The notes under the pieces were generated by a model. The model ran no database searches, had not been told where the DNA came from, and saw nothing but the letters and a program-made list of their open reading frames with translations. Positions 1,104-41,874 of a stretch of 41,874 bases of DNA are shown in pieces. This DNA comes from a virus: IMG/VR virus record IMGVR_UViG_3300009285_000025. One strand, written 5' to 3'. The first letter of the stretch is position 1, and every line of letters starts with the position of its first letter. Made by a program: the position numbers and the translations under genes.

Positions 1104-4025
1104 CTATCCTATCAATCCAGTTGCCTGTAGGTCAACAATTAAAGTTCCCAATACATCCGCCAATTCATCTATACTTGTAGCATTAGCATCAAAACTTCTA
1201 TCCGTAGTAACATTTGTTGGGGTGTATGCTGATGACTTAAATAATTTTATAATACTCCCATTTTCCGTTCTAAAGTGTGGAGCGGTATTCCCTGCCACAA
1301 TATCTGCCCCATATTGAATATAAGCATTTACAGGTGAACTGCTCGGATTAGTATTTGCAAGTAATTGCGTTAAGCACCCTATTCCACCGCCAGAATAATC
1401 TGTTCCTGCCGATAAAGTAGAGCCAATCGTTATATTCCCATCTTTTGTCAACTCAAATCTATCGACATCTGCGCCTGTTCTCATAATAATCCTACCCTCT
1501 TGAATATTAGGAGTAGTAGGATTACCCGCATTAAAATACCAGTTACCTCTTTGATTTGCTATAGCCGAATAAGTATTCCCTTTACCACCTATGGCGGGTC
1601 CGTAAGATGCCCCAAAAGATGTTGTAATTCCACAGCTAACTACCAATGCCCTTGCTGTGGAATCAACGTGAAGGGTATTTACATCATCAACAGAAGTTGA
1701 GACGCCATTAAACTGTAGCCCTTTGCCTAATCGTAATCTTGTTCCGTCAAAATCTCCCATAGTAGTCCAAGTAATTGTAGTGTCTATTGTGCCTGACAGA
1801 GCAGAATAATATGTTATTGTATTATTCTGTAATTTAATCATAGAAGCAGCGGCGGTTGTCTTATACTTCCAATCAGTGCTATAATAAACATTACTTGTTA
1901 GATACATTTTTCTCGGTTCTGCACTATTGCCCAGAATAATTGAATTAGAATGACTTTCAATAGCGTCAAATCCCGAATACCAAGTTTCTATGTCGGTAGT
2001 TTTAATACCAATACCATATCTGTGAAGATGTATGAAAGACGCCCCACTATCAATGGAATTAGATTTTAATTGCAATGCCTGATTTGTAGCATTACCACCA
2101 ATTAAAGTTTGCCCACTCGCCCTACCTAAAAGTAGGGCATACTGTGTATGGTCATCATCTGCAAGTCCCGTTAAAGCACCGTGGTCTGTAACACCGCCAC
2201 CAGTTGCATTAAGTGTAGTCCCGCTAATCGATAGATTAGTCCCAAGCGTTATTTCTTCAGCATCTCCAGCACCAGCAGTCGCCCTGCCAAGAAGCCGATT
2301 GTTAGTAGATACATTCTGTATTTTAGCATAGGTAACTTTATCGTTGCCGATAACTGTAACCCCAGCATTGTCATTAGTTACATCACCAGATAAGGTTACT
2401 GCTGTAGCTACACCAGAACCATTGCCTACAAAAAGTTTCGCACTTGCAAGTGCAGTAGGTAATAATGCTACCCAGCCACTCCCGTTATATTCATTTAACT
2501 CATTAGTAGTTGCATTGTAAATAATAAGCCCAGCTACGGGTGTGCCAATTAAATCCCTTTGAGCAGTAGTCATTCGTGGGGGTAAAAATCCCTGTGTAGT
2601 GCTGAACAGTTCAAGTATTGCCGAAGCCACTGGAAAACTCGCCCCGCTTGTTCTTATTATCATTGGCACGCCTGCAAAGGCATAATCCTCACCTGTATTG
2701 GCGTGTGTTACTCTGAAATATGAACCACTATTTATGAGCAATTCTACGTGCTTATCGCCCAGCCCATTTTGATATATCTTTACACCATTATTATTAGTAG
2801 GATTGTCATATAAATGTAATTCTTCCGTAGTTGCCGTTCCACCATATAAAATTTGCCCACCTGCCCTTCCCGCAAGTAACGCAAACTCCGTTTCAGCTTT
2901 ACCGCCTACTAATTCGCTGTTATCAACTATTCCGTCATTATCAGTATCGTAAACGGACTTTAGCATATCACCTACACCCGCCTCGTCTGCCCAGATAGGA
3001 TTAGCACCAATTCCCTGTGTTTTAAGGAATTGCCCACTCGTTCCGTAGCCAAGAGCCACCCAATTAGACCCGTTAAAATATAGTATATCACCCTGCGTAT
3101 TAGCACTCGCTCCGACTTGCTTAACGCCACCACTATTAAGAACAAGCATATCCGCACTTACCCAGCTATCCGTAGTAGTGCTACGTTTAAATGCCATTAC
3201 ATCTCCGCCACAATCAATAGTAAATAGCCCCTCACCATTTAAGTGCTGTGTTGCAGTAAGTTGGTCTAAATCTTGAAATAATATACGTGGCTGGTTATCA
3301 TTGATTAAAAGACACGTTCCATAGGCGGAGAATGCTGGAGATATACTCCCTAAAGCTAATCCTGTATGGGCATCGCCGACTACTAACCCCCTCTGCCAAA
3401 ATGAAGTAGATGCCGACCTAACAGAACTATAAGTATGTGATATATCTATATGTCCAGCACCAAAAGTTAGCTGTGCAGAATGAGTGTCCGTGAGATGATG
3501 TATTAGCAACCACGACTGCTGACCCGACCCGCTCTGTATAACACCGCCAACACCTAAATCTTGACCAAAGGCAACTTGAACTGTATAAGGGTCGCCGCTA
3601 CTAGCAACAGCTGGGTCAAGTGTAGTGCGTAGGAGTAGGCGAGAATTAGTTGGTGCTTCGAGGGAAAGAACTCTTGTCCCACTTTCAGCGCTAACTATGG
3701 TATTGTCAGTATCTCTGCCAATATATAAATGCCCATAACTTGCATCAAACCACATTCTTGGTTTATTTACGGTTAAGTCCCTTATGCCAAAGTTATGTGT
3801 TCCAGCCCTGCCAATATCTGTTTCTATACTCCACTTTGCAGAATTATTGCTCGCTAATACTAATTGTGCGGATTTAGATTGCCCGCCAGTGCTATTAGAA
3901 TTCTCTATAACTACCGCAGACGCCCCACTCGCCCCTCCGTCTTTAGTTATATGCAGTCGCTCTGTAGAAGTAAGAATAGTCCCTGTATCGCCAATCTGAA
4001 CATCATAGTTCGTATCTATTCGCAT
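1104..4025 (-). CDS. Tail fibre / tail spike protein (973 aa).
   Basis: It is the last large gene of the structural module. It carries fibre-type motifs DTDNDGIVDNSELVGGK and LTGLADDDHTQYALLLGRASGQTLIGG, the latter with a second copy (ETEFALLAGRAGGQILYGG). The rest is Gly/Ser/Thr/Asn-rich. Confidence 0.75.
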   Translation of the reverse strand: MRIDTNYDVQIGDTGTILTSTERLHITKDGGASGASAVVIENSNSTGGQSKSAQLVLASNNSAKWSIETDIGRAGTHNFGIRDLTVNKPRMWFDASYGHLYIGRDTDNTIVSAESGTRVLSLEAPTNSRLLLRTTLDPAVASSGDPYTVQVAFGQDLGVGGVIQSGSGQQSWLLIHHLTDTHSAQLTFGAGHIDISHTYSSVRSASTSFWQRGLVVGDAHTGLALGSISPAFSAYGTCLLINDNQPRILFQDLDQLTATQHLNGEGLFTIDCGGDVMAFKRSTTTDSWVSADMLVLNSGGVKQVGASANTQGDILYFNGSNWVALGYGTSGQFLKTQGIGANPIWADEAGVGDMLKSVYDTDNDGIVDNSELVGGKAETEFALLAGRAGGQILYGGTATTEELHLYDNPTNNNGVKIYQNGLGDKHVELLINSGSYFRVTHANTGEDYAFAGVPMIIRTSGASFPVASAILELFSTTQGFLPPRMTTAQRDLIGTPVAGLIIYNATTNELNEYNGSGWVALLPTALASAKLFVGNGSGVATAVTLSGDVTNDNAGVTVIGNDKVTYAKIQNVSTNNRLLGRATAGAGDAEEITLGTNLSISGTTLNATGGGVTDHGALTGLADDDHTQYALLLGRASGQTLIGGNATNQALQLKSNSIDSGASFIHLHRYGIGIKTTDIETWYSGFDAIESHSNSIILGNSAEPRKMYLTSNVYYSTDWKYKTTAAASMIKLQNNTITYYSALSGTIDTTITWTTMGDFDGTRLRLGKGLQFNGVSTSVDDVNTLHVDSTARALVVSCGITTSFGASYGPAIGGKGNTYSAIANQRGNWYFNAGNPTTPNIQEGRIIMRTGADVDRFELTKDGNITIGSTLSAGTDYSGGGIGCLTQLLANTNPSSSPVNAYIQYGADIVAGNTAPHFRTENGSIIKLFKSSAYTPTNVTTDRSFDANATSIDELADVLGTLIVDLQATGLIG

Positions 4026-7000
4026 TGCTTCTGTTAGTGCCCATCAACCGCCCAAATCGTTCCCCCGCAGATATATCTTCAGGCGTAGTAGCCATCATTA
4101 CACTTCTACTTATACCTGGCATTACGCCTTCTATTAAAGCTTGTAATCGCAATGGCGACATCCCAACCTTGCCCGCCAACTCTCTAACCCACATTGGTGT
4201 CCATTCCCTATACTGCCGTTCTGCGGGTTTTCGCTGTAATCCGTAAGGAACTATTTCTCTTCCAGTAAATAATTTCTTATTTACGAGTTGTTCTATCAGA
4301 GGCACACTCCAGCCAGGTATAGGTGTAGGAATGCCAATATCTTCAGTAAGTTTTGCCTGCGTGCCTGGAATTTGCCCTAATATCGTATCTGCTATACGGA
4401 GCGCAGCTTTAGGGTCTCTATCATAAATATAGTCAAGTATATATGTTGGAATTGTGCCAAACATAGCACCAATCTCAAACAATTTAGGAATAAGTATAAC
4501 TCTATCCCCAATATCAATCGTATAGTATCTTTGGCGGGCTATATTATTACGCCACGTAGGATTATCCCTATTAAGATACCATTCAATTACTGAAGGTGTA
4601 GTTATAAATGTAGCAGTAAGTAATGCAAACTTGCGAGGGTTTTCACCTATAAGGCGATATGCTCTGGACGCTCCCTGAACACCTGCGCCAAAAAATGGTA
4701 TCAACGTTCCTATCTGCCGAGAAATCATACCCTCTCTTGCAAAATTAACGGTTACCTCTCTTGCCATTTGTGCGGCTCGCAGAGGGTTTATGCCCTTCTC
4801 TCTTGCCCTAACAAACTCATTAAACCTTGATAATAATTCCCCCTCTTTAACTAACTGCTCATAAAAATTAGCTAATGATTTTATCCCATATACTTTAGCG
4901 GGCTTCTTAAACTGAGCCCCTACCATTTTTTCTAATTCTTCACGTGAAGTAAAATCGTAAAATGTGCTACCCTTCATCCCTAATAACTCAAACTCATCAA
5001 GATACTTCATTACTTTAGGGTCTTTTATAATACGCTTAAACGTCGTTACAGCTGGAGAAATCAAATTACTGCCCGTCTTGGATGCAAACATCTGCATTGG
5101 AACATCCCTTGCTATATTCCGCACCGCCCAAAATGCAGGATTTCTTGTTATAGACCATTGCAATGCTTTAGTAAGAACATTAGAAAATTTAAGAACAGCG
5201 TTAAGCTGAATAGGAGTAAATGCCCTTAAACTTTGTGCTAATTCCTTACCAACTATATCATTAGGATTTAGAGCAAAAGTTACTGGGGTGCCGTCTACTT
5301 TAGTTCTGATTAGATATTGCTCTGCCTCTTGGGACTTTCTCTCCATTTTACCTGTAATTCTTCTTGCCCATCCCTGCCTAACCGCTTCCTCACCAATAAG
5401 CGACTTCATTGTATTATTCTCTATTAGCTTATTTATAATGTAACGTTTACGGGATATAGATGTAAATATATTGGCAATCTCCGTTTGTCCTGTTATACCT
5501 TTCAACTCATCTACAAATTTTAGTGAAACGTCATCTTCAAGCCCCTCAAATACCCTCTCAAGCGGAACATACCATTCGGGCTTATTCAGATTGCCCAACG
5601 TATCCTTATTGATTATTTTGGCGTCATATAAGTCCTGTATCATTGCCCTCTCATTTTTGCGAATCTCACGCAGATATGGTAAAATCTGTTGTGCCTCGCC
5701 ATTTGCCTTCATTTCTTCTATAGTATTTAATGCTCGAGCTAACTCCTCTCTTACCGCTTTTTGTTTGAGCAACAACCTCTCATCCGCTGGCGTTTTCTTT
5801 AATTGTTCCTCTAACGACTTCAGCAATTCTGGGTTACGTTCCTGCATTGTCATTGCCTTTGCAAAGGCATCTGTCTTTACAAATAGCTTCTTTTTTTCAA
5901 GCCCCCTTATGATTTGTCCAAACGGCATACCGCCAATACGTTTAATATTGCCCGTTCTCATCAGTTCCGCATAAGAAATAAGCCCCTTCTCAAACTCCAT
6001 TGCAGTAGTCCCAGCTACCTGCTTGGCAGTATAGAACCTTTCTGTAATCTTTTTACTTATATCACGAGGTAGTAATTTATCAAAATAGTGCAAGTTGTTT
6101 GTAGTATTAAATCTGAATTTATCCCACCCACTACTTTTTATAACAGGTATTTTCGCTTTACCTACACTTTCAATCGGCTGTATTGACAGCCCCACGCCAG
6201 CCATTTCTGGCTCTGGACGAAGAACATCCTTACCTTCTATTTTACCTATCACTGGCTCACCTTTTAACTCTGGTATCTTTATGGATGGTTTAGTTGGCAG
6301 TTTAGTAGCGGGAGGAAGAGGGAGCTTCACTTCACCCTTTAATCTATTATGCAATTTTGTTAAATATTCAGATGTTACATCAGTAAATTTAGCCCCATCC
6401 CACCGTTTTACAGAAACTATGTTATTAGCGTTGGCTGGCTTTGTAATAGTTTCACCTTTCGCTTCTCCTATATTATTAAATTCAACTAAAAACTTACCTT
6501 TTGAGGAAGTTATATACTGTGTAGCACTCCCAGGAGTAGGAGCAAAGCTATTAGCTCTCCCAGCAACCCCTCCTTTATATACAATCTCTCCCGAAATAAC
6601 CTTATCAAGTTCTTTCTGTCCCATTCCACGCCAAGCCACCCCCTTTACAGATTGTAACTTTGGAGTATTGAAATAATTGGCATTTGGGGAAAACCCTGAC
6701 TGCTGACTTACCTTACTATCTATAAATTCCTTTAATCCCCCAGAAACCTCTCCGATAGGTTCGGTAGGAATAGGAGGGGGTTGTCCCTCAACTTTCGCCG
6801 TAGTAACCTCTTTAGGTAGTGGAATTCCCTCTTGAGCAGTAATGGGCTTAATTTCTTTTATTATTTCCGCTATCCGTTCTGGTAATGGCTTTGTTTCAGA
6901 TATTATCTGCTCTTTAGGTATTGGGATAGCTTCAGGTTTCTCTATCGGCTTAAATTCTGCCGTAGGTATTTCTCGTGCCATTGGACGACCAGCAACACCT

Positions 7001-16197: not shown

Positions 16198-16235
16198 TTT
16201 ATACTCCCTTATCCACTTATTTTTATTTCTTTATA

Positions 16236-16299
16236 TTAGAGGGAATTTCAGGATTAGCCCTCTAATAAATTTGGTGGGGAAGACAATCTCCCCCACCAA
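16236..16299 (-). terminator. Two tandem strong hairpins just downstream of the major capsid gene (attenuator or RNA stabiliser).
   Basis: On the minus strand, TTGGTGGGGA..TCCCCACCAA (16271..16299) forms a 10-bp stem. TTAGAGGG..CCCTCTAA (16236..16265) forms an 8-bp stem. Both are followed by A/T-rich sequence. Confidence 0.5.
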
Positions 16300-16309
16300 T
16301 TTACCTGTT

Positions 16310-21459: not shown

Positions 21460-22146
21460 TTAGTAATCTACTCCTAACTGAAAATCATAGGGCGATTCCC
21501 ACCGAGAATTACCGTTACGTAAATTCCTCGCCATTCCCCTTATATGCTCAATATGTGGAGACACCCTACTTGCCAATTTACTGCCCACAACTCCTTGACG
21601 CCATCTCTTCTGCGGAAACAATTTTGCCATACATAAATAACGCAACGCATCACACAAATGGTCGTCCACTTTTCTTATCTTTTCTCTCTGCCTATCATCC
21701 TTTACAACGCCCCTTACGTCCCTACGTCTATAATTTCTCATCTGGCGGAGTAGTTTATCATTCCCCTCACCATCAGACAAAATAAGAAGCTGTGGATTAT
21801 TCCACTCAAGACCTACGGGTTTATCCTTATCAATACGCATTAAAGACGAAACATAATTATTCCCCGCATCTACCGAGTTGTCACCATCTATACAATAAAT
21901 ACCATTTGCAATATATTCTAATTTTACCTGACTTCCTGGGTCTATAACATAGGTTGGAAGCACACCATCGATTGCCTGATAAGATAAAAATTCCTTCGAG
22001 TGTTCAGCTACAATCTTATTCTCCGCTAAATAAGAACGATAAACAATCATATTCCCATAAAAATCCACTGCTCCCCAAACCGCAGCAGTAAAATACCCCG
22101 TATCGATAGCAACCCCATATTCCCATTCTGGATTTAGCACTATCAC
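21460..22146 (-). CDS. terL: Terminase large subunit, C-terminal nuclease domain, as a separate ORF (228 aa).
   Basis: It has RNaseH-like nuclease motifs VAIDTGYFTAAVWGAVD and DDHLCDALRYL. The GTG start at 22146 overlaps the upstream TGA (ATGTGA) and lies 5 nt after AAGGAGGAGGTG. Confidence 0.8.
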   Translation of the reverse strand: MIVLNPEWEYGVAIDTGYFTAAVWGAVDFYGNMIVYRSYLAENKIVAEHSKEFLSYQAIDGVLPTYVIDPGSQVKLEYIANGIYCIDGDNSVDAGNNYVSSLMRIDKDKPVGLEWNNPQLLILSDGEGNDKLLRQMRNYRRRDVRGVVKDDRQREKIRKVDDHLCDALRYLCMAKLFPQKRWRQGVVGSKLASRVSPHIEHIRGMARNLRNGNSRWESPYDFQLGVDY

Positions 22147-22997
22147 ATCGCCACCTCCTCCTTTGCTATCTGGTAAAACTCATCTACCTTTTTAGAGGAA
22201 ATTAAAATATTGTCAAGTTCTTGATATATAATCTTACTTCGTGTCGCATACTTGCCGTAAATTCTCGCCTGAATCTCATCATCACCCAATGTCCGCATAA
22301 ACCTTTTAATCTGCACATCCGTAAGTAGTGGATTATCCCATATCTCTGGACTGAATATCTGAGAATCAGTATCAAATTCTACTGTCCCCTGCTTATCCCA
22401 TATATCCGTATATGTCCAGTCCATCCCTTCAATCGGAACAATCGTCATCCACAGACACCCATCCGTTGCAACAAGGCGAGCAACTATTTCCGTAAATATA
22501 TCTCTTGGACATTCCTCATCAACCCAAGCCCAATCAATATTCGCACCCGCAAATGCCTCCCTGCCGCTCTCTGCCGACTTGAATCGGACAATACAGCCAT
22601 CTGTAGTATGTAATGTCCTATACCTTTTCTCATAAGAAGCAATTTTATCTTTAGGAAAGAAATCAAAAAAGCGTCTCTGGGCGACTTCTAATCCTTTAGA
22701 GAAATCAGTAGAAACAACCCACCCCTCATTAGGCATACGGATATTCTTGCGATACGGATGAGTACCAAGAGAAAACCGTCCACCTTCAACAGCTGCCCCT
22801 GTGGTTTTGCCTACCTTATTAGAACCAATTACATATCTAAACGGCTTCTGACACTGATGAAACGCTTTTGCCCATTCAAACGGCTCGTAAAAATCTATTC
22901 CCCTTGCATCTTTACGGCTTTTCAGTTCCGTCAGAAGTTCCGTTATCTCCTGAAGTTGCGGATTCCTTTTCGCCTTTTGCATCAGCATTCTCCACAA
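22143..22997 (-). CDS. terL: Terminase large subunit, N-terminal ATPase domain, as a separate ORF (284 aa).
   Basis: It has Walker A GSNKVGKT, Walker B IDWAWVDEE, a coupling motif TIVP and the domain-end motif RIYGKY. Confidence 0.85.
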   Translation of the reverse strand: MWRMLMQKAKRNPQLQEITELLTELKSRKDARGIDFYEPFEWAKAFHQCQKPFRYVIGSNKVGKTTGAAVEGGRFSLGTHPYRKNIRMPNEGWVVSTDFSKGLEVAQRRFFDFFPKDKIASYEKRYRTLHTTDGCIVRFKSAESGREAFAGANIDWAWVDEECPRDIFTEIVARLVATDGCLWMTIVPIEGMDWTYTDIWDKQGTVEFDTDSQIFSPEIWDNPLLTDVQIKRFMRTLGDDEIQARIYGKYATRSKIIYQELDNILISSKKVDEFYQIAKEEVAM

Positions 22998-24267: not shown

Positions 24268-24342
24268 CTAAAATTCTTATTCTTATGCTCCACCTTTTCA
24301 GGCAAGCTCTTAAAAAAGGATGTGCCATTCTCCACAGTTCGC

Positions 24343-24370
24343 CTATCGACATCAGAACTATAAATCTTTA
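24343..24370 (-). promoter_or_regulatory. Sigma-28 (FliA)-like promoter candidate for the late operon.
   Basis: The minus strand reads TAAAGATT-N12-GTCGATAG. The enterobacterial FliA consensus is TAAAGTTT-N11-GCCGATAA. The site lies about 75-100 nt upstream of the first late gene. Confidence 0.4.
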
Positions 24371-24413
24371 ACAAAGTATGTGAAACTATTTTTAATTATT
24401 TATACGATTTTTG

Positions 24414-24442
24414 TTGACATAACTATAAACAGGCAGTATTAT
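24414..24442 (+). promoter_or_regulatory. Sigma-70-type early promoter.
   Basis: TTGACA (24414..24419), a 17-nt spacer, then TATTAT (24437..24442). Confidence 0.6.
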
Positions 24443-24449
24443 TCCTTTT

Positions 24450-24562
24450 ATGAAAACGCTTTATGAAAAGAATAATTAAAATTGCAGGGGGTAGGGCTAC
24501 ATCTCTCGCTATGTCGAAAGGCACGGCGGGGCGTTTTCATCCTACCCTCTGCTGTTTTTTTT
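24450..24562 (+). promoter_or_regulatory. Leader RNA element E1: interleaved helices A/A' and B/B' ending in a U-tract (terminator/attenuator).
   Basis: A 24450..24459 (atgaaaacgc) pairs with A' 24531..24540 (gcgttttcat). B 24484..24495 (gcagggggtagg) pairs with B' 24541..24552 (cctaccctctgc), 12 bp with one G-U. A T8 run follows at 24555..24562. Confidence 0.6.
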
Positions 24563-24583
24563 ATAGAGGGGGGGGCAAGTAAT

Positions 24584-25846
24584 ATGGTAGGCATAACGGC
24601 AAGGCAAAAACTTTTAGACGGGGATAATTTTATCGGGAACTATATCAGATATGCGAGCCAAAAAACCAGCGCAAAGGGTGTCTATCATTTAGCGATGGCA
24701 AAGTTATCCATAGCTACAATTCTCAATCATAATGTATATGTTGATGTAGGGACTCGGATATATCCGAACTTATGGATTTTGTTACTCGGCGCCTCTCGGA
24801 ATACGATGAAGACAACATCCTTAAACATAATGCGATATATTACTAATCGTATTCATAGACCTTGCACACCATACGAGCGGGACAAAGGGTTGTGCGATAT
24901 AAATGATGTAGGGTTCTGCACTAAATCGCACACGTTCTCGGCGCCAGCGTCATTTAGTTATGAAAAGATATTAGATGTATTGGCGGGAAGACCTTCGGCT
25001 TTATTTACATACAGCGAATTCAAATCGCTGATGGCAATGATTAACAATAATTATAATACAGAGCTTATGTCGTTTTTGACGGATATGTTTGACTGCCCGC
25101 CGATAATGGACAGAAGCACCCAAAAGGGCGAATTTGTCATAAAAGAACCGTATATCAATATAGGCGGATGTTCAACGATAGTATGGTTCACAGATTCTAT
25201 AAAAGAAGAGCATATCTCAGGCGGATTCCTCGCACGATTTATGTTTGTAATCGTAACCGAAAAGGTGCATAAGAAGAGCATCCACGACCTGACCAGTCCT
25301 TCCCAAAATGAAGAAAATAAGGTTGTTCACCAGCTCGAGGCAATTAAAGAGTTCGCTAAAACTGCCGGGCAGATGAGATTTTCTAAAGAAGCCGAACTCC
25401 TCCACCGCAAGTTTGAATTAGAGACGTTTGACAATACGCCGCCGATATTGGATGCCGTGATAGACCAGTATTGCACCTCTTGTATCAAGCTGGCTATCAT
25501 TTACGCCGCTAACGGGTTACGAGAGGAAATTTCTGCTGACGATATGGAGAATGCGATTAACGATACAAAAAGCGGTATCGTTGATTTATGCTCATTATTC
25601 TCTACGGGTAAAATTCAATTTACCGATTACGGCAAGAAATCACAAAAGATAGTCGAACTCATAGAACGTAAGGGCGGTAAGCTCTCAAGACGGGAACTCT
25701 TGCAATCATCCAATCTAAAGCTACAAGAATTTACACCTATCATAGATACTCTAATCCAAAGTGGCAGAATAGCACAGGTGCAGGACGGCAAACGTGGAGC
25801 ATATTCCTATACCCTTATGGAGAAATCATTATGCGAAAAGAGTTAG
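24584..25846 (+). CDS. DUF3987-like replication protein (helicase/initiator-like) with a C-terminal winged-helix (420 aa).
   Basis: RIYPNLWILLLGASRNTMKTTS, INIGGCSTIVWF and GGFLARFMFV fit my recollection of the DUF3987 pattern. The C-terminal ELIERKGGKLSRRELLQSS...GRIAQVQDGKRGAYSY looks like a wHTH. The start was trimmed from the track TTG at 24482 to the ATG at 24584, which follows GAGGGGGG. Confidence 0.55.
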   Translation: MVGITARQKLLDGDNFIGNYIRYASQKTSAKGVYHLAMAKLSIATILNHNVYVDVGTRIYPNLWILLLGASRNTMKTTSLNIMRYITNRIHRPCTPYERDKGLCDINDVGFCTKSHTFSAPASFSYEKILDVLAGRPSALFTYSEFKSLMAMINNNYNTELMSFLTDMFDCPPIMDRSTQKGEFVIKEPYINIGGCSTIVWFTDSIKEEHISGGFLARFMFVIVTEKVHKKSIHDLTSPSQNEENKVVHQLEAIKEFAKTAGQMRFSKEAELLHRKFELETFDNTPPILDAVIDQYCTSCIKLAIIYAANGLREEISADDMENAINDTKSGIVDLCSLFSTGKIQFTDYGKKSQKIVELIERKGGKLSRRELLQSSNLKLQEFTPIIDTLIQSGRIAQVQDGKRGAYSYTLMEKSLCEKS

Positions 25847-26187
25847 AAGAATTACAAGGGTTATTCGCCAAATACGAACTATACGACTACTTTGATATGG
25901 TATCCCGCTGGCTCGCCGATACAGACCTATACTCAAGCGATATTGCTCAATTTCTCGGCACCGGTAAATCCCAACTCTTGAAAGAAATAAGAAGTATGGT
26001 TACTAATAACCTCTTCAAAGTCCTCATCAGCGATACTATGCTTAATTCCGTTAAATCCCTTCAAGATATTGATAACCTTCGCTTCTGCCTGAATTACGAT
26101 AGTCGCTCCTGGCACCGTATCGCTCAGGCATTAAAAACCGCTAATTCTTATCAAAATACGCTATCCCGCTCCTTCTGTAGTATGTAG
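25831..26187 (+). CDS. Hypothetical 118-aa protein with a possible HTH segment.
   Basis: ORF track, with GGAG upstream. The segment SDIAQFLGTGKSQLLKEIR is HTH-like. The 3' end already contains two TGTAGTA repeats. Confidence 0.55.
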   Translation: MRKELEELQGLFAKYELYDYFDMVSRWLADTDLYSSDIAQFLGTGKSQLLKEIRSMVTNNLFKVLISDTMLNSVKSLQDIDNLRFCLNYDSRSWHRIAQALKTANSYQNTLSRSFCSM

Positions 26188-26391
26188 TAACTACCCCCCT
26201 ACCTATACCATAAAACCCTTAAATTTCAATAATTTAATAATTTATATACTACTACTACTACTACTAACTACACTACTACTTATACTATAACTATATATAT
26301 GATAGATACTTATGCGTAGTTTTACACATTACTACACTCCTTATGTAGTTACTACTTATACCCCTTATGTAGTAATGTAGTAAGTGTAGTA
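26176..26391. repeat. Iteron-like arrays: TGTAGTA repeats facing a (TAC)n/TACTAC array around an AT-rich core.
   Basis: TGTAGTA occurs at 26176, 26183, 26368, 26376 and 26385, with variants at 26344 and others. (TAC)5 at 26247..26261 continues as taactacactactac. TACTACA occurs at 26330. CCTTATGTAGT is present twice (26339, 26363). The core reads ctatatatatgatagat. Confidence 0.7.
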
Positions 26392-26818
26392 ACTTTAATT
26401 TTGCAAATTTCACAGATTCAGACCTGCAAACTCTGGCTATCTATCCTAAATACCGCCCCCCTTTATTCTAATCACTTTTCAAAATCTTAGGCACAGATGC
26501 AGAAGAGAGGGGGTATTGTCCCAATGACGCCACCCCCATAGGTAACCCTGTATGGTGTTACAGCGTTACAGTTATGCGGTATTAACATATATGGTAGTGT
26601 AGGTAGGTAGAAGTAGATAGGTGATGTTTCTTTACTGCCTATACGTTGGGGTTATATAGGGGCAAGGTAAGTAAAGAATGGCATAAAGGTAACTTCTCAT
26701 ATGGCATATAGGCAAGATTGCATACCTCGAGGTGTTTATCTCTACCTCTCTATCAACCGCCGTCCCTGTCTTTAGTGCGTTAGTTACTGCATTAAATACT
26801 ATCAAGGTCAAGGTATGA

Positions 26819-26840
26819 TATGTTGATAATATGTTGATAA
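26819..26840. repeat. 11-bp tandem repeat tatgttgataa x2, plus a partial third copy.
   Basis: Read directly: tatgttgataa tatgttgataa aatgtttaac. Confidence 0.8.
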
Positions 26841-26913
26841 AATGTTTAACTATCAAGTAATCACTGTTGCCCCCTGCCTATTCGCTATTTGCCTACGTTT
26901 GCATTATGCCTAT

Positions 26914-26933
26914 ATCCCTATCTATCCCTATCA
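26914..26933. repeat. 10-bp tandem repeat atccctatc(t/a) x2.
   Basis: Read directly. Confidence 0.8.
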
Positions 26934-27110
26934 CCTCATAATAACTATTGACATTTACGCCACTGCGTGGAGTTGCTCTACATTCAGCGACAGGGTCTCA
27001 AGTGTAGAATTACTTCCCTTTATCCATAGTTTGCGTCTGGCGGGTATCTACAAGCAATGTTAATTTCACGAATTTAAGGGTATGCCCTAAATCCTTGTAA
27101 ATTAAAGGGT

Positions 27111-27130
27111 ATAGGCAAATATAGGCAAAA
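27111..27130. repeat. 10-bp tandem repeat ataggcaaa(t/a) x2.
   Basis: Read directly. It shares the ATAGGCA core with five other dispersed copies in the region. Confidence 0.8.
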
Positions 27131-27200
27131 TCCTTGCATTATCAATAGATTAAAAGACATCACTACTTGGCAGTTGATGTATCATTCCTTGAAAAAGATT

Positions 27201-27250
27201 TTGCCTCTCACTTGCCTCTCACTTGCCTCTCACTTGCCTCTCACTTGCCT
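27201..27250. repeat. Perfect 11-bp tandem repeat ttgcctctcac x4.5.
   Basis: Copies lie at 27201, 27212, 27223 and 27234, with a partial copy at 27245..27250. TTGCCT is the reverse complement of the AGGCAA core at 27111..27130. Confidence 0.9.
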
Positions 27251-27750
27251 ATGCTTTGTCTCTATACTGCGTGCGGTCTGGTTGAAGTATCCTTCTTTTA
27301 TACCACTAATGGTATAAAATGTGTCAGGCAGTATTACTATTACTACCTATGGTATGAGTTAAGTATTTTTGCGTATTAGTTAAGTGAGATAGGGTAAGAG
27401 GGGACAGAGTTGTATAGTAGGTATGCAGTTTGGGTTCGGGTAATTTTTACAATTACTTTTTTTTGAGGTTTATAGAAGGTTCTACAGGTTTGGCAGTTAC
27501 AATCTTTTTGGTATGGATAAGACATATTGATATATTAGTATTTAGTTTTAATTTTGTCAAGTTAGCAGGTAAAAATAAATTCCCCTATATTATGGTTTTC
27601 TATACTACATATAGATAAAAACAATTCGTGTGTTCATACTAATAGTATATGGTATCTATATATTGTGTGATTAAAATTATATTATACTATATATGGTAGT
27701 TTTGTCAGTCAAACTATTTTAACTATTTTTACGAATTATGCAAATTATAT

Positions 27751-27778
27751 TTGTAATATCGCCGAGATGTGATATAGT
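27751..27778 (+). promoter_or_regulatory. Sigma-70-type promoter candidate with an extended -10.
   Basis: TTGTAA (27751..27756), a 16-nt spacer ending in TGA, then TATAGT (27773..27778). Confidence 0.4.
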
Positions 27779-27794
27779 CCTTATAGATTTAATA

Positions 27795-27906
27795 TGATAC
27801 GCATAGGAAGAATAATAATAAAGAGTAGAGCGGGAACGGGCATTTCTGTTCGTGGATGTATGTCTGCGGATACTATGCGTATCAACCGTCCCCGCTCTTA
27901 TTTTTT
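27795..27906 (+). promoter_or_regulatory. Leader RNA element E2, with the same interleaved A-B-A'-B'-U-tract architecture as E1.
   Basis: A 27795..27806 (tgatacgcatag) pairs perfectly with A' 27873..27884 (ctatgcgtatca). B 27827..27839 (agagcgggaacgg) pairs with B' 27886..27898 (ccgtccccgctct) with one mismatch. The sequence ttattttttat follows. Confidence 0.6.
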
Positions 27907-27919
27907 ATGGAGGTAGGCT

Positions 27920-28174
27920 ATGGAGTATATTACTAACTGCGTTTCGGGGAATGCTGAAGACCTTCAAAAGATGGTTGATTCTGCAAAGAGTATTACATAT
28001 AGAACCTTTACTAAATATGTAAAACCCTTCGTATTAAATGAGCTGTTCCCACAGTATGTAAAGGGCATACTGCATATAAAGGATGACTATTCAGTAAGTT
28101 TCTTCAAGGGTCGGTATCAGGGCAGACATTGTGTCTATGTTGAGCAAAGCGGGATAGAGTATATTTTTTGTTAG
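27920..28174 (+). CDS. Hypothetical 84-aa protein.
   Basis: ORF track, with GGAGG 7 nt upstream. It is the first gene after E2. Confidence 0.6.
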   Translation: MEYITNCVSGNAEDLQKMVDSAKSITYRTFTKYVKPFVLNELFPQYVKGILHIKDDYSVSFFKGRYQGRHCVYVEQSGIEYIFC

Positions 28175-38768: not shown

Positions 38769-39425
38769 CTATGATGCAATGAGTTGAGGTCTGCTTTTAA
38801 TAACTTCCTTTATTCTTTGTAATGCTTTTATGTGTAGTTGGCATATTCTCGATTCGGACAACTGTAACATAACCCCTATTTTTTTAAGCGTATGGGATTG
38901 AATATAACGAAGCTCGATTATCTGCCCCTCTCGTTTTGGTAGATATTTGCACATATAATCTATCAACTCCGAAGGGAAGTAATCATCTTTGACTGACGGC
39001 TCTGTCGTATAGCCCTGACGGTCATCATTATTGATATTACGAGAGAAATATAATTGCTCTCTTGTTATACTTACTTTACGCATTATCGTATCATCACTTG
39101 GCAAGCGATTATGCTCTAATGTATATCCTTGAGAAAATGTATCTATCCGTTTTTGCGTATTAAATACATTTCTACTTTTTAGTAATCGTCTTAAGTAATC
39201 ATAAATCGCACCTCGTATCCGTATCCTTGCATATATGCCAAACTTTACATTTCTTGCTGTATCGAACTTATCAATAGCGTCAAGTAATCCCTTACTGCCC
39301 TCTTGTATAAGGTCATCTATCTGCACAGATTGGGGGACGGCTTTAGCAAAATGCGTTGCTTCATTTATCACAAGCGGTAGGTATTCTTTGACTATTGTAT
39401 CATGCTTCAAGATACTGCATTTCAT
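38769..39425 (-). CDS. FliA/sigma-28-like (group 3) sigma-70 family sigma factor (218 aa).
   Basis: Region 2 reads EYLPLV...IDDLIQEGSKGLLDAIDKFD...FGIYARIRIRGAIYDYLRR. Region 4 reads LPKREGQIIELRYIQSHTLKKIGVMLQLSESRICQLHIKALQRIK. Confidence 0.85.
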   Translation of the reverse strand: MKCSILKHDTIVKEYLPLVINEATHFAKAVPQSVQIDDLIQEGSKGLLDAIDKFDTARNVKFGIYARIRIRGAIYDYLRRLLKSRNVFNTQKRIDTFSQGYTLEHNRLPSDDTIMRKVSITREQLYFSRNINNDDRQGYTTEPSVKDDYFPSELIDYMCKYLPKREGQIIELRYIQSHTLKKIGVMLQLSESRICQLHIKALQRIKEVIKSRPQLIAS

Positions 39426-39524: not shown

Positions 39525-39621
39525 GGTATCCAGCTATTAAGCGAAAATAAAAGGTTGGTGAATATCCGACCTAATATTTAAGTCCTCACAATCTTTAGCT
39601 GGATACCGTGAGGACTTTTTT
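39525..39621 (+). promoter_or_regulatory. Leader RNA element E3, with the same interleaved A-B-A'-B'-U-tract architecture as E1 and E2.
   Basis: A 39525..39536 (ggtatccagcta) pairs perfectly with A' 39596..39607 (tagctggatacc). B 39580..39589 (aagtcctcac) pairs with B' 39608..39617 (gtgaggactt). A T6 run lies at 39616..39621. There is an inner hairpin at 39552..39572. Confidence 0.6.
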
Positions 39622-39630
39622 ATTTGCATA

Positions 39631-39984
39631 ATGAATAAAAGTTACAGAGAGAATTATTTAATATCAAATCATTGGAAAGAAACAAAGAATAAATTTAGAC
39701 AATCTAAATTGTATAAAGGAAAATGCAGTATCTGCTATCGTTTAGTAAAAATAGATATTCATCATCTAACATATAAGAGAATTAGTAAGGAATATTTAAG
39801 CGATTTAATGGCAGTATGTAGAGAATGCCATAATCTAATACATAATCTACCTATAAATCAATCCATACGAGAAAAAACAAAACGAATAAAAAAAAGGATA
39901 AAGAAATGGATTAGACGAACTTACTGGGATAAAGGTAGAAAATGTCCCCAATACTATGAATTACCCAACTTAAGCTCTGGCTAA
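39631..39984 (+). CDS. HNH-like endonuclease (117 aa).
   Basis: CSICYRLVKIDIHHLTYKR...AVCRECHNLIHN gives a CxxC...HH...CxxCH pattern. There is no SD upstream. Confidence 0.6.
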   Translation: MNKSYRENYLISNHWKETKNKFRQSKLYKGKCSICYRLVKIDIHHLTYKRISKEYLSDLMAVCRECHNLIHNLPINQSIREKTKRIKKRIKKWIRRTYWDKGRKCPQYYELPNLSSG

Positions 39985-41758: not shown

Positions 41759-41874
41759 CTAACCTAAAATTTCTATGCAATTATCTACTATCTTTTTACA
41801 ATGTTTAACGAATTCCATTTGCGAGCAATCTTTTTTAATCCAATTACACCACTTACAGCACGATATAACATTAT
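41759..41874 (-). CDS. C-terminal part of the junction-spanning 48-aa ORF (includes the duplicated 77 nt).
   Basis: The minus-strand frame from the repeat continues KKIVDNCIEILG and stops at a TAG (41759..41761). Confidence 0.5.
   Translation of the reverse strand, partial: NVISCCKWCNWIKKDCSQMEFVKHCKKIVDNCIEILG

Follow-up and report, generated by a model that had tools for sequence, protein, structure and literature searches.

The window analysed here is the whole of a virus record from IMG/VR (IMGVR_UViG_3300009285_000025; 41,874 nt). This text concerns the stretch 26188–27919 within it, hereafter the gap, a gene-free and repeat-dense interval that follows a presumed replication gene. The two ends of the window share an exact 77-bp overlap (1–77 = 41798–41874), which identifies a circularised complete assembly of 41,797 unique bp (39.8% GC); the overlap itself is an assembler artefact of circularisation. 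The minus strand carries, from 24267 down to 289, the structural and packaging genes, including a split large terminase (TerL), a portal protein of the SU10/P22 type and the major head protein. On the plus strand, a DUF3987 helicase/primase-type gene and an open reading frame (ORF) of 118 aa that overlaps it lead up to the gap. Small early genes lie on its 3′ side, and after them genes for Gam, RecT, SSB, RNA-ligase-like, deoxyribosyltransferase-like, SPFH and HNH proteins. A minus-strand gene at 38769–39425 specifies a sigma factor with regions 2 and 4. The features of the locus, in order along the window, are as follows.

24584–25846, plus strand: DUF3987 helicase/primase-type gene, the presumed initiator (Pfam DUF3987, E = 1.4e-13; PHROG 'DNA primase', E = 2e-23)
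25831–26187, plus strand: 118-aa ORF overlapping the 3′ end of the DUF3987 gene (Shine–Dalgarno (SD) sequence GGAG; codon log-odds about 0)
26176–26395: cluster 1, the proposed iteron origin, with 16 TGTAGTA-type heptamers and 28% GC
26176 and 26183: forward heptamers of cluster 1, the first of which overlaps the end of the 118-aa ORF
26205–26246: first AT-rich spacer of cluster 1 (17.5–20% GC; the 80-nt window at 26220 has 17.5% GC)
26247–26283: reverse heptamers of cluster 1, eight copies
26284–26315: second AT-rich spacer of cluster 1
26330–26392: closing mixed-orientation set of cluster 1
26396–26634: GC-balanced spacer, with GTTACAG twice (26557–26571) and a GTAG-rich block (26592–26625) that is the inverse of the TACTAC array (inverted repeats I2 and I23)
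26635–27260: cluster 2, a candidate protein-binding array of 12 TTGCCTAT-type sites in both orientations, amid local duplications
26678–26723: 23-mer in two copies, in cluster 2
26818–26846: ATATGTTGATA in 2.6 copies, in cluster 2, holding the DnaA-box-like TTATCAACA twice
26913–26932: TATCCCTATC in two copies, in cluster 2
27110–27129: TATAGGCAAA in two copies, in cluster 2
27201–27250: TTGCCTCTCAC, an 11-bp tandem array of 4.5 copies, in cluster 2
27296–27319: the sole perfect hairpin or palindrome of the gap (10-bp stem, 4-nt loop)
27440–27790: AT-rich block, 24.5% GC (22.5% in 200-nt windows), the most AT-rich DNA of the genome
27751–27778, plus strand: promoter-like site (TTGTAA, 16-nt spacer, TATAGT with TG), a consensus match only
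27795–27906, plus strand: leader 2, that of the early operon, with boxes A (27795–27806), B (27820–27839), A′ (27873–27884) and B′ (27886–27905)

The gap is non-coding. In the ORF-based gene map it is the largest intergenic interval (1732 nt), the next largest being the 316 nt at 24268–24583, which bears out the first-pass annotation, made from the sequence alone, in its description of a 1.7-kb gene-free stretch in an otherwise tightly packed genome. TAA, TAG and TGA are each frequent in all six frames, so that a reassigned stop codon that would open a frame is ruled out. The best-of-six codon log-odds average −0.09 in the gap, versus 0.26 elsewhere. The four short ORFs of 62–74 aa, which the same annotation had set aside as not being genes, lack an SD sequence, score low for codon usage and have no significant match in Pfam (best E-value 0.17); hidden small genes are thereby ruled out as well. 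Ten further loci of the same phage species were reached, in metagenomes from the European Nucleotide Archive (ENA) and the Joint Genome Institute (JGI), via the RecT cluster of a large protein index, which gave no species other than this one, and in ten independent assemblies the gene callers placed nothing inside the gap.

The gap is also by far the densest short-repeat region of the genome. Nine of the 25 rows reported by Tandem Repeats Finder fall in it, that is, in 4% of the sequence (binomial p = 4e-7), and it has eight near-tandem 9-mer events, the genome-wide maximum, versus 0.31 ± 0.55 in 1000 dinucleotide shuffles (maximum 4). All the repeats that had been named in the first-pass annotation are found where it put them. 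Its count of at least five unrelated families does not hold: an unbiased word count returns two dominant families, the main words of which (those of clusters 1 and 2) are enriched 9- to 16-fold, and the two copies of ataggcaaa, the 4.5 copies of ttgcctctcac and the scattered TGCCTAT, listed as separate, have one common core, TTGCCTAT. The dispersed TATGGTA copies are present, but they are largely start-codon context: ATATGGTAG is found at the gene starts 24584, 34748 and 21458 (the last on the minus strand), plus two sites in the gap that have no SD sequence. Nor does the central part (26400–27100), which had been described as having many short complementary segments, fold unusually, the z-scores of its 150-nt windows lying mostly between −2.5 and +1. 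Folding is unremarkable on both strands from 26400 to 27750, and the unusual RNA folding of the gap is confined to its 3′ end.

Cluster 1 is built from the first of the two families. TGTAGTA, with at most one mismatch, occurs 16 times in the 217 bp from 26176 to 26392, versus 1.0 expected, and the same 217 bp hold 13 exact copies of GTAGTA. The latter is the most enriched word of the gap, with 15 of its 43 genomic copies in 26176–27919 (p = 1e-10). The first repeats lie at the stop codon that ends the DUF3987 replication operon, and the cumulative GC skew of the genome has its minimum at 26.0–26.5 kb.

This layout is that of the replication origins of the staphylococcal pathogenicity islands (SaPI). 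In the latter, 6–12 penta- or hexanucleotide iterons lie immediately downstream of the rep reading frame, around a central AT-rich region with at least two iterons per side in opposite directions, and they are recognised by the C-terminal winged-helix domain of a self-loading helicase (PMC9371898). Cluster 1 has every sequence feature of this description: the location after rep, at least six short repeats and an AT-rich centre with opposed iterons. The resemblance thus covers iterons of 5–7 nt directly after rep, many copies, the AT-rich centre and the opposed orientations, and it would extend to the initiator, a P-loop helicase with a C-terminal winged helix that is here predicted. The differences are that the initiator here is a DUF3987 protein, that the 118-aa ORF stands between rep and the repeats, that the copies number 16 and form three sets, not 6–12 in two, and that another 1.5 kb of repeat-rich DNA follows the element. 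The same order of gene and origin appears in the archaeal plasmid pRN1, whose origin is directly 3′ of the primase–helicase gene (PMC4234260).

A related contig is arranged in a similar way. In L074, an uncharacterised IMG/VR contig of the same broad lineage (identities to the window of 32% for TerL, 28% for the portal protein and 27% for the major capsid protein, MCP), the gene of an 816-aa VapE-like primase–helicase (1541–4368 region) is directly followed by GTATCCATG repeats. There are 14 copies of the latter (12 exact, two with one mismatch) within 377 nt, in both orientations and with AT-rich spacers, and they look like a textbook iteron origin.

The geometry of cluster 1 and the analogous layout in this one related contig partly support an origin at 26176–26395. 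The first-pass annotation had proposed an iteron origin next to the DUF3987 gene for the gap as a whole; we retain this proposal for the first 220 bp and not for the remaining 1.5 kb. We agree with its remark that the region exceeds the needs of one origin, the remaining 1.5 kb being left unexplained by this function.

If cluster 1 is an origin, the DUF3987 protein would bind the GTAGTA repeats, probably by its C-terminal winged helix and possibly together with the 118-aa product. Binding would melt the AT-rich spacer and the helicase would load itself, like the SaPI Rep proteins. In the AlphaFold2 model of the DUF3987 protein, which is poor overall (predicted local distance difference test, pLDDT, of 50), the best-predicted part is a C-terminal H-b-H-H-b-b segment at residues 348–412 (pLDDT 70–79). 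Foldseek returns weak matches of the model to MCM helicases and to MarR winged-helix proteins (template modelling (TM) scores of 0.35–0.39), and the protein has no detectable sequence similarity to solved Rep structures. For residues 348–412 the model predicts a winged-helix topology.

The coding status of the 118-aa ORF is uncertain. It had been described as a small helix-turn-helix-like protein; its product has no match in Pfam, PHROG or the PDB, and a search of 1.84 billion representative proteins returned only itself and two apparently spurious matches in large, unrelated repeat-rich proteins, which leaves an ORFan with a low codon score. Annotation pipelines call an antisense ORF of 60 aa (25933–26115) in its place, and the structural model of the 118-aa product was too poor for use. 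If this ORF is not a gene, the non-coding stretch grows to 2.07 kb.

The other end of the gap carries a different kind of element, whose design is present three times in the genome: a box A, a box B, their respective complements A′ and B′, and a U-run. The two examples outside the gap are given below.

24414–24562, plus strand: leader 1, before the ATG of the DUF3987 gene, with promoter TTGACA-17-TATTAT and a run of eight T
24450–24459, 24484–24496, 24531–24540 and 24541–24552: boxes A, B, A′ and B′ of leader 1
39525–39621, plus strand: leader 3, before the ATG at 39631, with boxes A (39525–39536), B (39580–39589), A′ (39596–39607) and B′ (39608–17), then a U-run

In leader 2, A′ is the perfect 12-nt complement of A (inverted repeat I16) and lies directly 5′ of the 3′ arm of the terminator; six U (27901–27906) follow, then the SD sequence GGAGG and the ATG at 27920. 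The leader forms a hairpin of about 90 nt (−45 kcal/mol, z = −3.0; inverted repeats I3 and I16). It thus has the G+C-rich stem and the U-run of an intrinsic terminator, with folding well beyond that of shuffled sequences. The fold of leader 1 reaches −52.7 kcal/mol (z = −5.8). When the nascent RNA is folded up to the end of A′, the A:A′ pairing is the best fold in all three leaders. At full length, the terminator B:B′ wins over A:A′ in leaders 1 and 2 and is about on a par with it in leader 3. An A:A′ fold in the nascent RNA followed by a terminator fold at full length is the logic of a kinetic antiterminator.

Leader 1 could be examined in a strain, L001, that is about 20% diverged there: both helices are kept via double substitutions (24453A>G with 24537T>C; 24492T>C with 24544A>G). 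By analogy with leader 1, the last 170 nt of the gap would be a promoter and a terminator/antiterminator leader for the downstream operon, which the first-pass annotation had missed. The 12-nt 5′ box of the leader RNA would pair with the terminator loop before the 3′ arm of the terminator is made, and read-through into the Gam–RecT–SSB operon would be set by the kinetic choice between antiterminator and terminator.

Leaders with alternative terminator and antiterminator folds are known from the 'preemptor' attenuation of pT181 repC and from ON riboswitch platforms of the pbuE type. In those systems, as would be the case here, an upstream segment pairs first and hinders an intrinsic terminator that lies just before the start codon, and the thermodynamic optimum of the full-length RNA is the terminator. 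The phage leaders differ in that A:A′ avoids the arms of the terminator and closes a loop containing the 5′ arm; they also have no sequence in common, hence no common aptamer.

Between these two ends lie the GC-balanced spacer, the folding z-scores of which range from −0.4 to −2.4, cluster 2 and the AT-rich block. TTGCCTAT, with at most one mismatch, occurs 12 times in 26635–27252, versus 1.4 expected, and five of the six genomic copies of TATAGGCA are in cluster 2. Two AGGCAAA sites face five TTGCCT sites over a 58-nt spacer (inverted repeat I14). With a unit of 11 bp, the sites of the tandem array of cluster 2 would be on one face of the helix. This array has either 4.5 or 2.5 copies of TTGCCTCTCAC, and this is the only polymorphism of the gap among about ten strains; one scaffold has an N gap at the array, and the contig of another assembly starts there. 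A role of the array as a promoter-spacing switch is ruled out by its distances to TATACT at 27263, which are 12 or 23 nt.

DnaA-like boxes (TTATCCACA, at most one mismatch) number 17 genome-wide, which is not above chance (13.3 ± 3.5 in shuffles). Four are in the gap, none of them exact (TTATCAACA twice and TTATCCATA twice), versus about 0.7 expected. Compared with the iteron origins of lambda and of plasmids (four or five iterons of 17–22 bp, an AT-rich region and DnaA boxes), the gap has a helically phased array (11 bp × 4.5), AT-rich DNA nearby and a few DnaA-box-like nonamers. In contrast to them, the unit is half the usual iteron length, no initiator gene contains the array, strains differ freely in its copy number, and the DnaA-like boxes do not exceed chance genome-wide.

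The AT-rich block contains sigma-70-like hexamer pairs on both strands, and it is a candidate unwinding element, a candidate early-promoter zone, or both. Cluster 2 may serve another DNA-binding protein, and it would form with the AT-rich block an auxiliary origin, an operator or a packaging element, together with an early-promoter zone. Auxiliary origin, operators and packaging sites all fit, and the two elements cannot be assigned to a single function.

Taken together, the gap is most likely a replication-origin and early-gene control region, and possibly also the site of the genome ends. The full version of this reading, which we hold with as much doubt as confidence, is that the gap works in cis, as DNA and not as a gene for a protein or an RNA, at the head of the early/replication arm of a lytic-type phage: first the origin, then a second array and an AT-rich block, and last a promoter and its leader. 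Of this, the non-coding status, the repeat counts with their geometry and the RNA folds are observations; binding of proteins, firing of the origin and attenuation are inferences. Of the 59 mapped ORFs, 40 were scanned against Pfam, with no integrase, repressor or partition domain among them, and the absence of the first two from these ORFs points to a lytic life style. The gap would be a composite control region of a known kind, not a new one, with parts that are only partly assigned. If this is true, it provides a concrete candidate origin, in the form of a 220-bp fragment and a candidate initiator, which would be useful for handling or engineering such uncultured phages, and the layout with short opposed iterons directly after the helicase gene, described for SaPI Rep proteins, would hold for DUF3987 and VapE-like proteins of phages as well. 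Nothing here overturns current understanding.

Several observations weigh against this reading. Gene orientation switches at 24.4 kb and the TACTAC array is rich in C, and both confound the GC-skew minimum. Among remote homologues of the DUF3987 protein, L105, the one for which the downstream DNA was read, has no repeats 3′ of the gene; in a second one, L106, genes follow directly. About two-thirds of the region (26400–27750) is without specific functional evidence, and the promoter-like sites are only about two standard deviations above shuffles. The confidence of the structural model is low (pLDDT 50), as are the TM-scores of its PDB matches. Leader 2 is invariant among strains and is supported by analogy to leader 1. 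Conservation is uninformative, as the close strains are identical across the gap and its sequence has no counterpart in the more distant relatives.

The strain comparison also shows where variation stops. From 25025 on, the ten loci are identical to the window save for the copy number of the 11-mer, the N gap, the contig start and one single-nucleotide polymorphism (SNP), so that no covariation test is possible inside the gap. On the 5′ side, L001 (42–620) is only about 80% identical to 24448–25024 of the window, across leader 1 and the first third of the DUF3987 gene, whereas the 9 kb after 25025 are identical but for one SNP, which defines a sharp recombination mosaic boundary near 25025. 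The phage is known from metagenome assemblies only, whose names (ANAN16) may point to an aquifer as the source. Neither the reference phage collection nor IMG/VR (searched also with DUF3987 and RecT) nor the plasmid collection contains a close relative, and there is no DNA similarity to reference phages and plasmids. Phages that resemble it at RecT (L008 and L009) have neighbours that are not syntenic, and MW202554 has no comparable gap.

A second explanation, a serious one though on the unlikely side, is that the gap holds the physical ends of a linear genome. In this case, a direct terminal repeat of about 1 kb, with repeat arrays next to the ends on its flanks, would have been collapsed by the assembly, the short repeats would be terminase or end-processing sites for concatemer processing and packaging instead of iterons, and the early promoters would follow as they do at the left end of T7; such ends could coexist with an origin in cluster 1. 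The concatemer junction of T7 is also gene-free over about 1 kb and contains repeat arrays, three strong promoters and, ahead of the first gene, a hairpin.

By MCP and TerL (24–29% identity), the characterised phages nearest to this one are Arthrobacter Jasminevirus phages, then LUZ24/tf-like podoviruses. Jasmine (L100/L101, NC_041875.1) and Adat (L102/L103, NC_042020.1) have linear records whose two ends repeat each other exactly, over 1330 and 1551 bp, respectively. These repeats sit precisely between the divergent early and structural arms; (TATCC)n arrays, direct then inverted, precede the right repeat copy by 20–170 bp. A repeat of this kind, collapsed into a circle, would resemble the gap. 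Relatives by the portal protein (32–36% identity) also have a gene-free, repeat-dense region of 0.9–1.2 kb at the junction of the arms:

L010, 2510–3741: gene-free region at the arm junction
L014, 809–1744: gene-free region at the arm junction
L020, 1922–2896: gene-free region at the arm junction

The small early genes followed by Gam (end protection), RecT and SSB downstream of the gap suit a left genome end, and contig ends of other assemblies fall inside the gap in 3 cases out of 17 (p = 0.03). The latter breaks coincide with repeat arrays, however, and heterogeneity of copy number would explain them. A collapsed circular assembly cannot display a terminal repeat. The arm junction of this phage is the 316-nt interval at 24268–24583, and the 1.7-kb gap is 1.6 kb inside the early arm, one operon further in. 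TATCC is not enriched in the gap (about 6 copies by hand count, versus 5.4 expected from the genome total), and only the duplication of TATCCCTATC resembles the arrays of Jasmine. The likeness to the Jasminevirus and T7 ends consists of about 1–2.5 kb of almost gene-free DNA with direct and inverted arrays of short repeats, then promoters and the first genes of the arm, added, for Jasminevirus, to distantly related TerL and MCP; the position relative to the arm junction and the repeat words differ, and the repeat of Jasmine contains an Lsr2-like gene.

Other observations on these relatives are as follows. TATCC arrays were considered as an element shared by the lineage; they are real in Jasmine, Adat and L074, and unenriched in the window. 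No Rep–iteron link can be made for Jasmine, the helicase being of the SNF2 type, not VapE-like. The terminal repeats of Jasmine and Adat both carry an Lsr2-like gene, and the right repeat copy begins within an inverted repeat, CCCCTCTACC/GGTAGAGGGG, with the TATCC arrays just outside it. In the window, the exact 12-nt direct repeat ATATATGGTAGT is present at 26587–26598 and 27689–27700, the copies being 1102 bp apart, and its core, ATATGGTAG, is otherwise that of the three gene starts named above; the terminal repeats of Jasmine and Adat also start with ATGGTAGAGGGG. The ATATATGGTAGT pair could be due to chance, be relics of gene starts or mark boundaries. The features of the gene-free regions of L010, L014 and L020 include shared AACGCGT-type palindromic operators, tandem TATCC-like repeats, 11-bp phased CCCCAACGCGT repeats and TCAACGCGTTGA palindromes, and that of L010 contains the genes of tRNA-Trp and tRNA-Ala. 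None of the three has significant sequence similarity to the gap of the window. L014 and L020 have only islands in common (operators and a promoter box), from which no conserved RNA emerged; their common box, GGGTTTTkGGAGTCmCGTTCCTCT, precedes a TTGACA promoter.

Of the points left over from this work, the leader design that recurs and the possible long terminal repeat are of most interest. A bolder proposal, which we regard as improbable, builds on both: the three leaders would be a new phage class of kinetic antiterminator, in which a 5′ box complementary to the terminator loop closes off the 5′ arm of the terminator and a phage factor times the replication, recombination and nuclease operons; as an independent matter, the 1.3 kb that separate leader 2 from the iteron cluster would be a long non-coding terminal repeat whose repeat families serve packaging and end processing in an undescribed podovirus lineage.

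It is also rather improbable that the gap is mainly a transcriptional control hub, with operator arrays around divergent early promoters and no origin function. The gene-free regions of L014 and L020 offer a precedent, with three to five palindromic TCAACGCGTTGA operators and a conserved promoter; promoter-like sites occur on either strand of the AT-rich block (CTGACA-16-TATAAT at 27708, minus strand, is one of them), the TTGCCT repeats are inverted around the 58-nt spacer of I14, and the phage has its own sigma factor. On the contrary, none of the neighbouring genes was identified as that of a regulator, sixteen packed heptamers with no recognisable promoter between them are atypical of operators, and no minus-strand gene requires a leftward promoter at the gap.

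We consider it very unlikely that the gap encodes one or more long structured non-coding RNAs, which the first-pass annotation had listed among the options. Lying as it does between a promoter-bearing operon and the strong terminator at 27906, the gap is probably part of a transcript, as a long untranslated stretch at its 3′ or 5′ side, and it has some local inverted repeats. But Rfam 15 gives no match at gathering thresholds, and at E-values up to 5 the lone match, to the eukaryotic mir-204 (16 bits versus a gathering threshold of 48.4), is taken as chance; ARAGORN finds no tRNA or tmRNA gene. With its unremarkable folding from 26400 to 27750 on both strands and its single perfect hairpin, the gap is dominated by direct, not complementary, repeats; it has no similarity to relatives and no variation that could reveal covariation. 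The partition site listed beside the RNA is likewise unsupported, with no ParA or ParB domain among the 40 ORFs (out of 59) that were scanned against Pfam.

Last, there is little to recommend the idea that the gap is decayed coding DNA without function, relics of early genes padded by slippage duplications: it would account for the many local tandem duplications and for the gene-start motif ATATATGGTAGT, present twice (26587 and 27689) with neither an SD sequence nor an open frame while ATATGGTAG is at three real starts, but the dense packing of the other genes shows that junk is not tolerated elsewhere, decay does not produce dominant words enriched 9- to 16-fold with symmetry of orientation, and about ten assemblies of different samples have an identical gap, whereas the adjoining 5′ end of the DUF3987 gene is mosaic.

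A more distant group of IMG/VR contigs, with portal proteins about 25% identical (L029, L040, L044, L051, L064, L067, L068, L070, L072 and L088), has AT-rich gene-free regions of 550–700 nt, 3.3–4.7 kb upstream of the portal gene. These regions are series of different perfect palindromes, including GTAGTTACTAGTAACTAC, and most of them end with a conserved box, CCCCGTTATGACCCnCCCACATATATATAATTAC (L029, L051, L067 and L070; a variant in L040 and L044). A hairpin array of this kind is ruled out for the window, the gap of which has one perfect hairpin only.

Two further observations concern the minus-strand arm. The large terminase is encoded at 21460–22997 as two ORFs that overlap by 4 nt:

22143–22997, minus strand: ATPase part of the terminase, 284 aa
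21460–22146, minus strand: nuclease part of the terminase, 228 aa

The split is also called in another strain, while L014, L020 and L074 have a single ORF of about 490–530 aa spanning both parts; the two parts may be truly separate or be joined by a programmed frameshift. Two tandem G+C-rich hairpins at 16198–16309 (minus strand), just past the 3′ end of the gene for the major head protein, probably constitute a double terminator.

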